Assembly: GCF_963921235.1 (NCBI RefSeq)
Contig: NC_086107.1
Span: 93,250,001-93,314,000 of the forward strand
Length of the DNA: 64,000 nucleotides
Direction of reading: 5' to 3'
Source of the DNA: Mobula hypostoma
Lineage: Eukaryota
Positions 86-53,499 of the stretch are shown piece by piece. Made by a program: the position numbers and the translations under genes. The notes below the pieces were generated by a model. That model had not been told where the DNA came from. It saw nothing but the letters and a program-made list of their open reading frames with translations, and searched no databases. The first letter of the stretch is position 1. Each line of letters opens with the position of its first letter.

Positions 86-525
86 CCTCAGTTCTGCCAA
101 CATATCTTGTGTGTGTGTCGCTCAGGATTTCCAGCATCTGCCGAATCTCGTGTGCGTAAGGTGACAAGTAGGTAGGGGAGGGGAGGGGATTGGGACTTGG
201 ATACCGGGCAGGTAGATGAGCGATGGGGATAACCAGGAGCTGGAGGTCGATGACAATGGGTGATGGGGGCTGGATGGCAAGGGGGACAAAAATGGAACAA
301 GTGGCCGAATATTGGAACGAGAGGGGGAAAGCAGAGAAGACTCTCTGAGGAGAGGGTTTACTACACTGGAAGTCTCAGTATTCATGCCACAGGTCTGTCG
401 GCTATCCAGGCATGAGACCACGTGTTCCTTTAGTGTGCATTGAACCCCAGTCTGGCAGTGGAGAATGCCAAGGATGAACAGGGCAGTGGGGGGAATAGGA
501 AGGAGAATTGAAATGGCAGACAATA
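86..525 (-). mobile_element. Degraded Penelope-like element 3' end (GIY-YIG C-terminus) with adjacent terminal-repeat fragment
   Basis: ORF 122..523 (LFILGILHCQ..LKEHVVSCLDSRQTCGMNTETS) aligns by eye to the C-terminus of the Penelope ORF at 26267..27742 (MSIHGLLYCK..LEEQHLIFRMGSLQPDGMNIDFS); 86-155 contains the terminal-repeat motif GATTTCCAGCATCTGC. Confidence 0.65.
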
Positions 526-527
526 TG

Positions 528-815
528 GATTAAAGATTAGCTGTACCTGTCACACGTACAGTGAAATGCGTCGTTTGGAGTCTTCGCCCGCGGCGTGCTG
601 GGGGCAGCCTGCGAGTGTTACGTTGGCTTCTGGCGCCAACGTGGAGTGCAGACAGCTCACTAACCCTAACCCGCATGTCTTCGGAATGAGGGAGGAAACT
701 GCAGCAGCCACAGCAGTCCCACGCAGACTTGGGCGAAGCTCCTGACAGACAACGGCGGGGAACCGAACCCTGTCCGGTGATCGCCAGCGCCCTAAGGCGG
801 TATGCTCACTGCTGC
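528..815 (-). mobile_element. tRNA-derived V-type (HE1-like) SINE, representative copy
   Basis: Minus strand has a B-box-like GGGTTCGGTTCCC head, a V-like core and a TAATCT tail. Related copies lie at about 5790-6108, 22005-22300, 22710-23000, 24190-24335 and 54870-55050. Confidence 0.65.
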
Positions 816-21764: not shown

Positions 21765-23002
21765 GCACTACCTAAATGTGCTGCAGGTCACAAGTCAGAA
21801 CATTTCCAATCAAAAGAGAGTATTAGACTGGGAACACCTCTGGGGAACTTCATCCAATGTCGTTGGGTTAATGCCCTGGAACTACCTATCTTGATGTACT
21901 GTATCTTCATCGCAGAGACTCACTGCGCATTCCTCAAGGACAACTAGCGGTGTTTAAATAATGTCACCCTCACCAATGAAGCCCACCTTGTAAGCGTTTC
22001 TAAAGATTAGTTTTGTTTGTCACATGTACATCAAAACATGGAAACATACAGTGAGATCCTCGTTTGTGTCAAATCAAATCAAGTCAGCGACCATGTACTG
22101 GGCCACTCTTCTGCCAACATAGCCTGCCGACAACTTACGGACCCTAATCCGTTTGTATTTGGAGTGAGGGAGGAAACCAGAGCACCTGGAGGAAACCCAT
22201 GTGGTCATGGGGAGAACGTAGAAACTGCCATACAGACAGCAGTGGAAATTGAACCCGAAGCAGCTATTACTGGTGCTGTGCTAGCCACTATGCTACCATG
22301 CTGTTCCTTCTGAGCTGATCCGTGGACCCAGTGGGAGCCACGATGGTAACAGTGAATCAGACGATGTTTCTCTTTCAGCCAACCCAGGGAAAGAGGCAGG
22401 AAATCAAAATCCTGCAGATGCAGGAAACCTGAAACAAAAGCTGAAAATGCTGGCAACATTCAGGAAGTCGGGCAGCATCAAAGGAGAGATAAGGCCCTTC
22501 GCTAATCGAGACCTTCTCTCCATAGATGCTGCCTGATCTGCTGTGTCTTTTTAGTATTCCCTGTTTTATTTTTTTTTTAAGTTTTGTTTCATCAGATCTT
22601 ATTGGATCAGCTTATAGTCATACACACCAGGGTGCAAGGAAATTCCTTGATCACATGAGTAAGCAGTAAACAATGTGAACTACAAAACAAGAGAGAGATG
22701 CTTAAGGACAGTTTAGTAGCATTGTGATTAGTGCAATGCTTTTCAGTGCCAGCGGTCACTCTGCATTCAGTTCCCCCCGCTGCTCTCCATAAGGAGCTCG
22801 TACATTCTCCCCGTGACCACGTGGGTTGCCTCTGGGTGCTCCTGTTTCCTCCCACGTTCCAATGACAAGGGGATTAGGGTTAGTAGGTTGTGGGCATGCG
22901 ATGCTGGTACCAGAAGCATGGTGACACTTGCCCTCGGCACATCCTCAGGCTGTGATGGTCGTTGACGCAAAGAATGCTTTTCACTGCGTGTTTCGATGCG
23001 GC

Positions 23003-37510: not shown

Positions 37511-37625
37511 TCTCTATTAGCCCCATGAGTAAACCTGATTGCTCCCTCATACCTCAATATTTAATAGGCTTCAGTGAGATACCCCCTCAATCTTCTAAAC
37601 TCCAGTGAGTACAGGCCTGCAGGGT

Positions 37626-37789
<164 letters not shown>

Positions 37790-38949
37790 ACGCGTATACT
37801 TGAGGAGGTAATTGTGTGTGACGACTCTTTTTGCTGAGCAGCTCACAGAGTGCCCCTGCCCACCGCTGGGAAGGGCTGCTGTTTGGCATCGTACTCCAGG
37901 TTTGTCTCATGGTATGAGAAGGATTTGAATCTGTGTTGGGCAAAGTCAGAAAGGTCAAAAACTAAAGATCACAGAGCAAAGCAGAAGTGTCTCAGGTGAA
38001 GGGCGGCTGAGCAGCGAGTGGTTGGAGTCTGGGCTGCACCCTAGGCGAGCTGAAGGAGCAGTCTGTCAGGTACGGTCACCATGGACAAAAGGGAGATAGA
38101 TGTACAAGTACCAGCAAGGAAAGAATTGGCAGGGTGTGGGCAGTGGGTGTTGGAGAGGGATGAGCAGGAATGGTCTTGACTGGAGACACTACAGGCTCAA
38201 TGGGCTGTGACCAGCTGGTGATCCATCTCCACCCTCTCAGGAAAACCACCCAGCTGGATAATAATTTCACTCACATCTGCTGGGAGCTGCACCTCCTGCC
38301 AGTTGAAGCAATTTCTCCACATTTGTTCTCACAAAATCCTTTACAATTTTAATGACTAAAGATTAAAAATTTAACATTAAAGATTGGCTTTATCTGTCAC
38401 ATGTACACACAGTGTTATGTTTTGTCACTTCAGACATTAAAACTAATTCAAAAGAAGACATACAGGTTAACTTTAACTTTGAGTTTATTTTAAGCGAAGC
38501 GCGCACGTATCGCGTGGTAGCGTGATGACGTATGTAATTAATCTATTTGTATCTATTTAATATTTAAACAAACAAGAATGCTTAATCAAGCAATATATGT
38601 ATATACAAGATTACTCATATTACTGAAATATTAAATACACAACATTCCTCCCTGCTTAGCTAGTAACTCCAACTCAACAGGGGAAGCATCTCAATTATAT
38701 ACACAGTAGACTGTATAATGCAGCATAGTCAATTTTAAGTCGTCCCATTCAGGACTAAGATGGAATCGCTGTGGCGGATTTCTTACTCTTGTGGGATAAT
38801 GTTTTTCCTGACGGGGTGGGGGGTGGTCACTCTGTTTGGCAGGTGAGACTTGTGGCTGCGAAACAATCCCCAGCTCTGGGGCCGCCTCCATGGAGATTGT
38901 AGAAGTTGACTCTGAGACCGCAGGAAGTGGTTCTGACAGCTCTAGACAC

Positions 38950-39451
38950 CTTTCTTCTTCTAGTTTGTGCAACTTGATTGTGGGAAGGTGCATTTAGCTC
39001 ACAGAAGTATTCTCTTATTAATCCTTTGCTCCCTTTACGATCTGATCTCTCTTCTTGGTTTCTTCATCCACAATATCATCTGACAAATCCTCTGTTTTCG
39101 TATCTCTGTTGATTCCTTTCTTTTTGGTCTTCCATTCATCCGAGCAGCTTTTTGTCTCCCACTTGTAGTTCATGCAATAACCTTAATACACACAGAGTAG
39201 ATTCTGGCTTTGTATATTCACAAAAGCTGAATGCTTGCAACTTTCCTGAAGCTTCGTGAACTCTCTTCCAGCTTAAAACGAAGCCGCATTTCACAAGCAA
39301 CTGCCTGATTAATATATCAGAAGCTTTCGCAGATATTTTGGCTGTAAAAATTGTTGTAGTCGCACCACTGACTTCATTACTTTCATGATTCCTCTGAGCA
39401 GCTTGGTCCAATATGCTTTCCGACAAGAGGCACAGAGGCTGGCACCAACAA
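38950..39451 (-). pseudogene. RBM25: Processed fragment of RNA-binding motif protein 25 (RRM and downstream charged region), frameshifted
   Basis: Reads LLVPASVPLVGKHIGP / SGATTTIFTAKISAKASDILIRQLLVKCGFVLSWKRVHEASGKLQAFSFCEYTKPESTLCVLRLLHELQVGDKKLL / DEWKTKKKG..DEETKKRDQIVKGA / GLIREYFCELNAPS. This matches RBM25 as I recall it (GPTTTVFVGNISEKASDMLIRQLLAKCGLVLSWKRVQGASGKLQAFGFCEYKEPESTLRALRLLHDLQIGEKKLL..DEWKAKKK..DEETKRRDQMIKGAIEVLIREYSSELNAPS). Three frameshifting deletions. Confidence 0.92.
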
Positions 39452-39753
39452 CTGCTTGTCTTACGCTGAGCAATGGTTCATGGTGGTTCAACACAGCTAC
39501 AGTTGTGGCATCATCCAGTATCTTTCTTCATTCACTTGTATTTGACTCTGTTACAGGGGATGTGGCATGCAAATGGCAGAAAGATCTCCAATCAAGTTAT
39601 AGTTGTCTCAGTTTTTACCGCATTCAAGCTCAATGTGGCTTGTTAGTTGTTGTATTTCACAGTCACGAATATTATTCCCACAGGAGTTAACTTTTCTCCA
39701 GTATAAGCTCTTAGTTGGGTATCTGGAGTCTACAGTTCAGTGTCTTTGAAACG

Positions 39754-40601
39754 TCACAGTGGGAGAAACTAGGAAAGATGGCACCAGAGGTTTTTGTAGA
39801 CCTTCCAGATTGTTAATGAAACAGCTTATTCTTCCTTTCTCGTGCTTTTACTTTCTTTTCGAGGTGGCTGGGGTTCCGTTGGAGTCCATGATCTCCAGTT
39901 ACTGTTCAAGCTGTGGTTCTCCACAAGCGGAGGGTTTTCGCACCAGTCGTGCGGCCTGGCGTTTCGATATCTCCATGAGCGGGCCTGGAAGGCATGCACT
40001 TTCGATGGGTGGTCCCGCAGATGACCCGGTTCCTTGCCAATTTCACTGACTAAAGAAGATCATCAGGGCAGCAGTCAGTGTGCGGTGCTGTCGAAAGAAG
40101 GCATCTATAGCTGAGCGATCTCTCTCTCTCTCTCTCGATGGAGGGTAAGAGTCTGTTGGTCTCTGAGTCAGGAGGCTTGGCACAGTGTCGCAGAAGATTG
40201 CAACTTTAGAACAGTGAGCTGCTGGTCTCCTGTGCTCGTTGTTGAAGGAGTAATCTCTCTCTCCCTCGATGGTGAGAGAAGCCTGTTTGAGAGACTGAAG
40301 TGTTGGGTTATGGACTACAGTTTTTAATGGACTAGATCAAGGTCTATTTGGGGCTTTTGCTTGCATTGTGGGGGTGGGGGTGCTTCTCATTGTGCAAATG
40401 TGTGGAAGAGGAGGGGGAGGATCAATATTTCTGCTGATGCTTATGTGTGAGGGGGGAGATGGTCTTTGGTTTTCTGATATTACTCTCAATCATTCTTTGG
40501 GGTTTCTTGTTTCATGGATGTCTCTGTGAAGAGTAAGAATTTCAGGTTTTATACCACATACATCCTCTGATATTAAATTGAAACATTTGAACCATTTGAA
40601 C
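39754..40601 (+). mobile_element. Non-LTR retroelement 3' segment inserted in the Gypsy protease
   Basis: Splits VIPLNEF / FKDTEL; ends in (CATTTGAAC)n-type tail. Confidence 0.65.
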
Positions 40602-40825
40602 CAAACTCATTTAGTGGAATGACTGAAACAGTCGAATCAGTGTCCAATTCCATTTTAATTAATTTGCCGTTCACTTCTGGTGTAAGCCATATTGCTTGTC
40701 TACTGTTAATTTTCACACTGTGAACCTCGAGGCTACACAGTCCTGTGTCACTCTCGTCACTATCAGATTTTTCATCAACAGCGTACAGATCAATGCTCTT
40801 TTTTGAAATTGCAATTTGACTTTTT

Positions 40826-41090
40826 ACAAACAAGAGTAAATCTGCAGATGCTGGAAAACCAAGCACCACACACAAAATGCTGGAGGAACTCAGCAGGCCA
40901 AGCTGCATGTATGGAAGAGAGCACATTCGACATTTCTGGCTAAGACCCTTTGGCAGGACTGGAGAAGAAAAGCTGAGGAGTAGATTTAGAAGGTGGGGGG
41001 AGGGGAGAGAGAAACACAAGGTGAAACCTGAAGGGAAAGGGATGAAGTAAAGAACTGGGAAGTTGAGTGGTGAAAGAGATACTGGCCTGA
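40826..41090 (-). mobile_element. Penelope terminal-repeat fragment inserted between Gypsy gag and protease
   Basis: Homologous to 25835-26100; decayed hammerhead core at about 40925-40960. Confidence 0.8.
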
Positions 41091-43230
41091 CCTTTTAGCT
41101 ACTTCTCTCCCTGTGCAGTCCATTTATTCCTGTCTGGCCAACATGCTCTTTGTATGTGTGCTACTTTGTGGCACTTTCTGCAGGTTTCGGCTTTAAACCT
41201 GCATTGGTCTGGTGTATGTGAACCCCTGCCACAACTGTAACACAATTTGTTTGGCCAGACTGGTTTCTGTTTAGATGTTGGAATTTTGCTCATGCTCACT
41301 TTCACAGCTGCAACTCAACTGTGTCCGGGCCTGTGGCTTCTATTGAAACAGTGATGTCAACTGCTCTTTTGAATGTGCTTCAGTTAGAAGCTGTTTCTGC
41401 GTGCTTTCTTGCAAGATTCAACGAACTGAATGATCTCTCAATGCATCATTAAGCTCATTACTGAATTGACAATGCTTAGCCAATCTCTTCAATTCAGTCA
41501 CATATGCTGAAATGCACTCCCCCTCTTTTTGATTCTGCTTATGAAACCTAAAACGTTCTGCAGTCAACAATGGCTTCACTTCTAAATGTTCCAACATTAC
41601 TTTAACAATACCAGCAAAGCTCATTTCTACTGGTTTGGTTGAAGCAGTCAAACTTCAAAGCAAGCTGTGTGCCCTTAAGCTCAATGCACTTAGAAAAATT
41701 GCCACTTACTTCTTATTGGCTGTTACATTTGCTTCAAAATACTATTCCAATAGCTCAGTGTACATGAGCCAATTACTCTTGTGTAATCAAACTTGTCAAT
41801 CTTTCCGATGTAGCCAGCCATTGCTGATTTTTTAAAAGATTATTATCACCCGGTAATCACTCTTTATTGTCCCTCTATTCTTCCGTTTATAATCTTTTTT
41901 TACTCCACGTCTCTGCACGTGCTGGGCTGCATCTCTTTACTAGCCATGCTTTGTTTAGTTTGAATGTCTCACGGTGCTTGAACAGGTCAGTAGCCATCCC
42001 GGGATTGTCTTAAAAATACCTCATCTCCAATGATATGTTCTGTAACTTTTAAACATTAAGCTAATTCAAGAAAGTCATGGAAGTCTGACATGTGAGTCTA
42101 ACTTAGTGACTACTTTAAGTGAGGTGCACATGTATCACATAATAGTGTAATGACATATGCAATTATGTATTTTTTAATATAATCCATAATAAATTACTTA
42201 AATAAACAAGAATCTTAATCAAACAAAATATATATGTGCTGGGGGCAGCCCACAAGTGTCGCCATGCTTCAAGTTCCCACAACATGCTAACACTGACCTG
42301 TACATCAAACCCTAACAAAGCATGCCTACAATCCATATGAACGCTGGTCCAGTCAAAATGGCGCCTGCGTACAACATTCCTTCAGCTGACATTTCCTGGA
42401 TAAACCACAAAACCATTTGCTTCACTCCTTTTACATCTGTTTTTCATCATGAATGTGCTTCTGGAACGGCTCGAGCTTGCAGTTTCCAGTTTGGAGATCA
42501 ATTCAGCAATTGAGCACTTTGCTGTCTCTGAGAAGATTCCAGGAAGCAGCAAGAGCAAAGCTCGAGGCAAAGAAACTACAAGACAGGGCGCAAACTGTTG
42601 TTCAACTCCATTTCACCGATTAAAACTTCCATAATAAAATAATACATAATGTATAATAAAAACTATAAATTACAATAAGAAATATATTAAAAATTAAATT
42701 AAACTAGCAATGAAAAAAATAGTGAGGTAGTGTACATGGGTTCATTGTCCATTCAGAAATCTAATGCCAGGGGGGGAGAAACTGTTCCTAAAATGCTGAG
42801 TGTGTGCTTTCAGGATACTGTACCTCCTCCTTGATGGTAGTAATAAGAAGAGAGCATGTCCTGGGTGATGGGGGTCCTTAATGATGGATGCCGCCTTTTT
42901 GAGGCATCATCATCTGAAGATGTCCTCAATGCTGGGGAAGCATATAGGCTGGGTTATTGGTTATATTCTAGGGCTGTGTCTGAGGGGTTATTGGATGATA
43001 GGGCAGTCAAGGGCTATGGGGAACTGGCCTTTTTTCTGAAGCAACCTTACTGAAGATAAGACCATAAGAGCTAGCAGCAGGAGTCAGCTACCTGGCCTGT
43101 TAAGCCTGCTCCGCCATTCAATATGATCATGGCTGAACTGGCCATAGATTCAGCTCCAGCTACCCACCTTTTCGCCATAAACCTTAATTCCCCTGCTGTG
43201 CAAAAATCTTTCTAACTGGGTCTTAAATAT

Positions 43231-52498: not shown

Positions 52499-53499
52499 TG
52501 GACTAGGAACCCGAGGTCCCTCTGCAACATCGACACTGTTAAGGGTCCTGCCATTAACAGCACCTTGTCTTTTACATTTGATCTCCTAAACTGCAACACT
52601 CTGCATTTGGTCAGGTTAAACTCCATCTGCCATTGTTCTGCCCAAAACTACAAGTCGTCTACATCCCACTGTATCCTTTGCCAGTCCTCAGTGGTTAGAT
52701 AGACACAATGTGGCAGATGGAGGTTAATCCTGAGAAGTGCAGCTAACTGCAGGATAACTCTGCAGGAGACTGCACTATCCCTGGTAATGTGCAATGGAGA
52801 TATATACACACATCTCATAAGGCAGCAGGATAGGCAGATTAGGATTCAAGACTCAAGATTATTTATCACGCGCACTTCGTAATGTTTGGGTGGTGGGGTG
52901 CAGATACATTTCTACCAAAGGAGATGCAAGGCACTATTCCTTCTGTCAGCCTGCAGACCACCCTTGGGCAAGATGTAGCATCTGCCTAGCCCCCTGATCA
53001 GGATCATGTGAAGCCATGGGAACAGATAGTGAATGATCGAATGAGCAGCTGGTACATATCACAAGTCGCTGACACCAGGCAGACAATCTCTGAAGAATAT
53101 TGATATGGCTGGGGTCACCTGTCTTGTAAAGACCCCATCCAGAAGAAGGCAATGCAAATTCACTTCTGTTGATAAATTTGCCATGAACAGTCATGGAAGG
53201 ACCATGATCGTCTGCGTCATACGAAATGGCACATAATGAATGAGCAACCATCGAAATAGACAATGAAGAGCTTCATTTGTATTGACAACCAACATAAATG
53301 AGGGTGTGCTGAGGACAGCCCACAAGTGTCGCCACACATTCCAGCTGCAACGTAACCTGCCTACAATGCTCGGCAGAACAACACAGGACACAACAAACAG
53401 CAAAACAAGCCCCATGCCTCCCTGCCCCGCACACATGCACACACACACACACACACACACAGAGTCTTTTAACCCCAGGACAGGATATTATATAGTATC

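Follow-up and report, generated by a model that had tools for sequence, protein, structure and literature searches.

Chimeras formed between a long terminal repeat (LTR) retrotransposon and a captured host messenger RNA (mRNA) are the closest described systems to the locus analysed here. According to the excerpted text of Tan et al. 2016 (PMC5131818), chimeras arising by LTR-mediated retroposition re-transpose as non-autonomous elements. They carry an internal, intronless mRNA piece, truncated at both its 5′ and 3′ ends and devoid of poly(A), which replaces part of the open reading frames (ORFs) between the LTRs, and a double template switch in a virus-like particle is the origin proposed for them. 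The element examined in this work resembles them in all these respects. It lies on the minus strand, at positions 38413-42236, of a stretch of 64,000 nt of the Mobula hypostoma genome (NC_086107.1, 93,250,001-93,314,000; the whole stretch is called the window, and feature coordinates are those of the window). It is very probably an old and broken member of a non-autonomous, Ty3/Gypsy-derived family in which the sequence following the protease has given way, up to the final ~300 bp of the internal region, to an internal piece of spliced RBM25 mRNA.

Read on the minus strand from 42236 to 38413, the window copy is composed of a 5′ LTR, a primer-binding site (PBS)-like sequence, gag, protease, RBM25 coding sequence, ~290 bp of internal sequence, a polypurine tract (PPT) and a 3′ LTR (Table 1). 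A first-pass annotation of this DNA had proposed the same order of parts, which we retain with corrections. It labelled the 3′ internal region as an integrase tail, and this label is not endorsed here because no real homologue was found, the region giving one match among 1.84 billion representative proteins, to a repeat protein. The annotation was right that the enzymatic core of pol is missing. No reverse transcriptase (RT), RNase H or integrase (IN) frame is present in the ORF listing of the window copy or in any of the 39 relatives described below, and the element is therefore classed as a non-autonomous derivative of Ty3/Gypsy.

The 113-codon frame at 39136-39477 returned 124 protein matches at E ≤0.001 (best E 9e-33, ~70% identity), named RBM25 across vertebrates. 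As already noticed in the initial reading, the RBM25 piece is intronless and has the same orientation as the element. Its RNA recognition motif (Pfam RRM_1) is weak in the window copy and reaches E 1.7e-6 in a better-kept relative. The insert is a fragment of RBM25 and not a gene: it contains the RRM, accompanied by the RE-rich region in long copies, while the C-terminal half with the PWI domain exists only in the true gene on contig C1. Similarly, RBM25 sequence beyond about residue 443 of the gar protein P0113 was found only at that gene. Two further loci retrieved by the PWI-domain search, on contigs C76 and C2, were rejected as RBM25 and belong to other PWI genes.

The host RBM25 gene is located on the minus strand of contig C1 in the same genome. 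Its exon 3 measures 171 nt (VLVPT..QLLA), preceded by ..ttttacatag and followed by gtaagt. In every aligned copy, the match starts at the first base of exon 3 and continues past its last base into KCG.., which belongs to the next exon. Between the protease and RBM25, the first-pass annotation had left ~45 bp unassigned. This segment proved to be a copy of a 48-nt cassette exon of RBM25, present in the host gene at C1:99832633-99832586 (L060 3136-3183, minus strand), in frame between exons 2 and 3, 5.8 kb downstream of the former and 3.4 kb upstream of the latter. The host exon has a complete splice context, with a pyrimidine tract and ttttcag before it and gtaacc after it, and the copies match it with up to 97.7% identity, joined seamlessly to the exon 2 tail on one side and to exon 3 on the other. 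The same ~45 bp had also been considered as intron adjacent to exon 3, a possibility that we rejected, since a comparison with the final 290 nt of that intron revealed no resemblance (mean z -0.36). The cassette exon encodes MLYTMNRCPTEGKQ, identical at 14/14 residues to the start of a shark (Heptranchias) protein named ‘RBM25-like isoform X1’ (P0001). As far as the sequences allow one to judge, it would seem to be an alternative exon of this splicing factor, conserved and so far undescribed.

We also considered P0001 as a copy of the element and rejected this, as the protein fits the cassette exon of the true gene joined to an alternative acceptor that precedes exon 3 by 12 nt. P0001 terminates at a real exon boundary and its leader was found in no other protein. 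The 12 intron bases that it has before exon 3 had 0 matches among the copies; in the Mobula genome, these 12 nt end in a stop codon (TAG).

The upstream limit of the captured sequence falls within exon 2. Host exon 2 ends with ..CCTGCCACAACT, followed by gtaagt, and the copies carry its last 10 nt, TGCCACAACT. When the joined host exon 2, cassette exon and exon 3 were aligned with the copies, the alignment started 10 nt before the end of exon 2 in 10 of the 15 best rows, and 13, 22, 11, 8 and 8 nt before it in the remaining five. The 5′ crossover is in frame, pol ending with ..LDD and RBM25 starting with ATT. The protease end had previously been read as ..ILDDATTV; pol in fact stops at ..ILDD, and ‘ATT’ is the end of RBM25 exon 2. 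Altogether the insert crosses at least three exon junctions of the host gene, a lower bound as the host exons for residues ~134-440 were left out of the comparison, and two of the introns concerned measure 5.8 and 3.4 kb. Because these spliced junctions are crossed without introns, the insert derives from a spliced mRNA. The comparison with host RBM25 that had been suggested as a check thus yields several joined exons and not a single exon with intronic flanks.

How widespread this arrangement is was explored over the 3.48 Gb of the genome. With a 661-bp query extending over both ends of the RBM25 piece, 40/40 of the best matches among at least 3,750 candidates span the junction; the window’s own match aside, they show 74-80% identity and cover most of the query. 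With a 92-residue RRM query, the best 150 of at least 3,750 candidates are all contiguous and intronless (150/150), at 76-93% amino-acid identity. The gar protein P0113 gave 54/54 scored loci as contiguous matches, within residues 60-413, and the contiguity over residues ~71-412 implies further exon junctions; as these matches reach residue ~413, many copies hold more of RBM25 than the window copy does. Finally, a 30-nt word made of the pol end, the exon 2 tail and the start of the cassette exon was found, with up to 3 mismatches, at 532 forward and 503 reverse positions, hence 1,035 loci, including 70 exact matches; the reversed control gave 0. The amplified chimeric family that the first-pass annotation had only conjectured is therefore real. 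From a decay of ~10% per copy, and ignoring indels, we roughly estimate ~1,600 or more junction-bearing copies; at 2.6-2.8 kb per copy, the family would amount to several Mb. No description of it was found in the literature, a search that lay outside Repbase and Dfam.

Thirty-nine relatives, picked by similarity in the RBM25 region, were fetched and compared. All 39 share the plan LTR-gag-protease (PR)-RBM25-tail-LTR. The stretch from protease to RBM25 is continuous, and 38/39 relatives cross the pol/RBM25 junction. Two copies with both ends measure 2,574 and 2,806 bp, and complete 5′ LTRs exist in other copies, e.g. L020, L026 and L036. Near window position ~38950, BLASTN against the 39 loci revealed extra sequence in other copies. 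The spacer between the anchors used is 28-57 nt in 20/36 copies, a short form to which the window copy belongs with 29 nt, and 115-587 nt in 16/36 copies, long forms that retain the RE-rich part of RBM25; the difference between short and long forms is confined to this region. Besides, 6-12 codons around ..LVKVDAKTKAQL.. of the RBM25 part are missing independently in several copies (L003, L005, L011-L014, and the window copy at 39140-39150), and the AAAG-rich stretch present there may be a deletion hotspot.

Signs of expression were also sought. RNA contigs of four runs aligned to L006:1400-2250 (131, 178, 278 and 128 contigs, respectively) are mostly <90% alike and correspond to other copies of the family. 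Host RBM25 mRNA is not separable among these contigs, which accordingly demonstrate neither that the family is expressed nor that the cassette exon is used today. Annotated PR-RBM25 fusion proteins were not found, the Mobula isoform matches covering only the short interspersed element (SINE) piece in the query frame.

The Ty3/Gypsy affiliation is drawn from the protease. It displays the D-T/S-G motif and is 40% identical (E 1e-22) to P0131, a Ty3-type protein with PR and RT, whose RT matches Ty3 RT best, at E 6e-32; the next non-Ty3 entry follows at 1e-18, and HIV-1 RT at 1e-8. Homology with P0131 extends as far as ..KLRK, a few residues short of the crossover; beyond this point, P0131 and another element of the Mobula genome go on with ..EEVF.. 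and RT. PR-RT sequences are abundant in the genome, the best 105 of 41,356 candidates having been scored. One of them, L062 (C36:65538450-65539250), is a Ty3/Gypsy PR-RT, and some autonomous-type elements have frames of up to 1,104 codons; to judge from these sequences, Gypsy lineages of younger age may have remained active here. On the gag side, two CCHC knuckles are present in the ORF at 41099-41314. Twelve copies possess a nTGGTGATGAGGTATTTTT-like, TGG-initiated motif right behind the LTR end ..ACATAACA; it is PBS-like.

The comparison between copies bears on the history of the family and on the fate of its cargo. In the RBM25 part, pairwise differences among 40 copies at codon positions 1/2/3 are 0.190/0.181/0.176, and the NG86 omega is 0.755 in frame versus 0.60 and 0.70 in the two wrong frames. 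The RBM25 parts decay neutrally, with no codon-position signal; gag and protease display at most a faint signal of selection. The idea that the element had been spreading copies of a splicing-factor RRM holds insofar as the copies are dispersed; there is no sign of selection on them. Net divergence between the short and long forms is ≤0.5% at every position. Being practically zero, it indicates that both forms spread in one burst, and a single burst provides no internal branches along which to detect selection. Identity to host exon 3 averages 86.2% across the copies (range 80.5-91.8%). Their distance to the host exon by codon position is 0.109/0.121/0.182, against 0.197/0.204/0.185 between copies, so that the part of this distance not accounted for by decay of the copies falls mainly at third positions. 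Such a pattern would be expected had the source been the RBM25 of this very lineage, which would have undergone mostly synonymous change since then. The variable linker, in the alignments displayed, is of host type in the copies (..VPLVGKHIGPRKDHAAQRN.ESDESSG..) and not of shark type, which suggests that the capture postdates the separation from sharks.

We propose that the chimera was born once, through two template switches of RT between the element RNA and an RBM25 mRNA co-packaged in a virus-like particle. The product would have retained LTRs, PBS, PPT, gag and protease, and would have relied on an autonomous relative to supply RT and IN in trans, as suggested by the lack of these enzymes combined with the high copy number. 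A single burst would then have dispersed it along with a derivative that had lost part of the purine-rich RE region, and the RBM25 piece would have travelled as a passenger. The 10 nt of the exon 2 tail, or ATGA just upstream, may include a stretch of microsimilarity.

Several observations weigh against this explanation. The gag is recognised weakly (Pfam zf-CCHC_5, E 0.005; PNMA, E 0.009), a 159-codon gag frame having no PDB or Pfam match, and the protease, whose full length aligns with Pfam RVP at E 0.002, scores below the Pfam cut-off. No autonomous partner came to light, and the best PR-RT stretch fetched belongs to a different lineage. Target-site duplications (TSDs) are not readable in two full-length copies at about 10% decay. 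Choosing the relatives by their RBM25 region biases divergence downward in that same region. Passenger status is a default and not a demonstration, for a star-like burst gives no power to detect selection on the progenitor, and in 7 of the 39 other copies there are still frames of ≥150 codons that run from the protease across the junction into the RRM.

These remaining frames, the in-frame 5′ junction and a copy number very high for a gene-carrying LTR chimera would all fit another scenario, in which an in-frame Gag-PR-RBM25 fusion bound the element RNA, or hijacked host RNA handling, and so ensured preferential packaging into helper particles. The RBM25 part nevertheless carries no codon-position or dN/dS signal, and none appears between subfamilies, albeit in selection tests of low power given that the family is a single burst. 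Moreover, in the short form RBM25 and the 3′ region no longer share one frame, and yet this form is the commoner one (20/36 sampled). We consider this scenario improbable, and see equally little chance that the defective element used the captured RRM, via packaging of its own RNA or via the host splicing and export machinery, in a way that would explain its thousands of copies. A second bold reading, compatible with the first, is that RBM25 fragments, present by the thousand during the burst and almost identical to one another, could have fed, in sense and antisense, small-RNA pathways directed against host RBM25.

Alternatively, the capture could have occurred from DNA or pre-mRNA, an element inserted in or near RBM25 being read through into the gene, with a template switch at the 3′ junction only. 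This is the textbook route of acutely transforming retroviruses (Swain and Coffin 1992, as cited in the excerpted text of PMC5131818), and the common orientation of insert and element agrees with it. However, the 5′ crossover is found neither in an intron nor at a splice acceptor: it falls in exon 2, with 10 nt of that exon left, and its surroundings are fully spliced. In addition, 11.9 kb of the host locus contain no element sequence, the cassette exon itself aside, and a version keeping the intron upstream of exon 3 was sought with 0 matches. An exonic crossover and the lack of any element remnant in these 11.9 kb leave this route very little likelihood. As to a processed pseudogene of RBM25 made by a long interspersed element (LINE) and landed in a dead Gypsy, the composite then multiplying by segmental duplication, nothing was found in its favour and it is excluded: unlike an L1-type processed pseudogene, the RBM25 piece lacks the poly(A) of its own that had been named as a possible counter-indication, its 3′ end falls within coding sequence, it replaces pol instead of interrupting the element, and more than 1,000 loci are dispersed on both strands of many contigs with LTRs of the same family.

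Table 1. Parts of the window copy and its immediate flanks, listed in the 5′ to 3′ order of the element
Feature	Window position	Strand	Remarks
SINE half flanking the 5′ side	42237..42300	-	Core ..GGCTGCCCCCAGCAC; matches another SINE copy at window 53305-53334
5′ LTR, first ~44 bp gone	42031..42236	-	Aligns with the 3′ LTR and with LTRs of 35 other copies
PBS-like site TTGGAGATGAGGTATTTT	42013..42030	-	Directly after the 5′ LTR
gag remnant	41088..41821	-	ATG at 41821; stops and frameshifts; homologous to the same region in other copies
Nested SINE, private to the window copy	40827..41087	-	41088 abuts 40826 in other copies (BLASTN)
gag end, then initial half of protease (..MELDTDSTVSVIP..)	40578..40826	-	ORF 40573-41094; protease match seen in better-kept copies
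Nested 825-bp unclassified insertion, private	39753..40577	-	Between GTTTCAA direct repeats 40584-40578 and 39752-39746
Remaining half of protease, then pol stub (up to ..RKILDD)	39511..39752	-	Homology with Ty3-type P0131 reaches ..KLRK
Last 10 nt of RBM25 exon 2 (TGCCACAACT), 5′ crossover zone	39501..39510	-	Comparison with host exon 2
RBM25 cassette exon, copied (48 nt in host, 49 nt here)	39452..39500	-	Host match C1:99832633-99832586
Copy of RBM25 exon 3	39292..39451	-	171 nt in host, 11-nt deletion here; 85.6% identity over 160 nt
Copy of later RBM25 exons, rest of RRM to ..ELNAPS..RRRK	38950..39291	-	Frameshifts; private 11-codon deletion after the RRM; alignments to P0001
3′ internal region, open 100-codon frame	38658..38949	-	ORF 38691-38993; common to the family
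PPT AAGCAGGGAGGAA	38645..38657	-	Directly upstream of LTR start TGTTGTG, here and in other copies
3′ LTR, full length, 232 bp, TG..CA	38413..38644	-	LTR start set by family comparison
SINE half flanking the 3′ side (..TGTACATGTGACAGATAAAGCCAATCTTTAAT)	38366..38412	-	Matches SINE tails at window 529-560 and 22001-22030

The window copy itself is dead. Apart from the deletions listed in Table 1, it has suffered several frameshifts and two nested insertions in gag and protease (41087-40827 and 40577-39753), both overlooked in the initial reading. Its two LTRs are alignable, with a mean column identity of 79% in one comparison and with p=0.29 and K2P 0.375 over 186 nt in another, and do not come from unrelated insertions; this divergence makes the copy an old one. 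The 5′ LTRs of other copies start with TGTTGTGTATTTAATATT.., a start absent here, so that the earlier view of an element with all its cis signals kept holds for the family and fails for this 5′-truncated copy. The 825-bp insertion splits the protease. It was placed at ~40601-39752 by BLASTN (40602 abuts 39751 elsewhere) and at 40577-39753 by sequence; its direct repeats are 7 bp long and no terminal inverted repeat is visible by eye.

That the element had split one SINE is confirmed in that the two flanking halves are in register. The reconstruction is incomplete on the 5′ side: compared with whole SINE copies in the window, at least ~37 bp of the SINE interior are absent there, and with them the start of the LTR. 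Because both are missing, no TSD is readable at this copy. A single deletion probably took the TSD together with the beginning of the LTR and some of the SINE, and the reading of a single insertion into one SINE stands though the TSD is gone. Further copies of this SINE occur at window 520-730, 21990-22200 and 53250-53420, and the part that separates their core CCCCCAGCAC from their tail TGTACATGTGAC varies by tens of bp.

The SINE nested in gag (..CTGCTGAGTTCCTCCAGCATTTTGTGTG..) is of an abundant kind, pieces of which lie in several other loci, including L019 (frame 1568-2602). Peptides from SINEs of this type match, with 82-100% identity, segments within alternative isoforms of many annotated Mobula genes, which suggests either a widespread exonisation of this SINE or an annotation artefact. 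A (GT)n microsatellite of ~170 bp lies just outside the element, at window 37620-37795.

With the host gene available in the same genome, the RBM25 family provides a cleanly resolved natural case in a vertebrate of an LTR element capturing a spliced host mRNA. It is a molecular fossil of an RBM25 isoform with the 48-nt cassette exon, an exon still present in the host gene. The genome has been seeded with thousands of RRM-coding fragments, which annotators could mistake for RBM25-like genes.

Likeness to several known systems helps to situate this family. Acutely transforming retroviruses carrying v-onc genes also hold a piece of spliced host mRNA in frame with gag or pol remnants, and are defective and helper-dependent. 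The RBM25 family differs from them by the lack of detectable selection on its cargo, and by being a germ-line genomic repeat instead of an infectious agent. In being deprived of RT and IN, keeping its cis signals and reaching high copy number, probably through a helper, it behaves like the MaLR elements moved by MERVL (as excerpted from PMC5131818). Plant LARD and TRIM elements have likewise lost RT and IN, kept their cis signals and been amplified by helpers. All these elements are usually non-coding inside or contain gag only, whereas the RBM25 family has gag, protease and a host coding insert.

The maize Bs1 element and the rice retrocopies in LTR elements, as they appear in the excerpted text of PMC5131818, share with it the conservation of gag and LTRs and the replacement of pol by pieces of host genes. 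These are low-copy plant cases, Bs1 being assembled from pieces of three genes, and here a single gene was captured, in an animal, and brought to very high copy number. Lastly, the chimeras described by Tan et al. 2016 are, in the same excerpted text (PMC5131818), few-copy ones; the RBM25 family, with more than 1,000 copies and length variants in a vertebrate, has been amplified far above them. The proposed mechanism, LTR-mediated retroposition with subsequent mobilisation in trans, is a known one, and what is unusual is the scale that it has attained in a vertebrate: such chimeras can turn into major repeat families.

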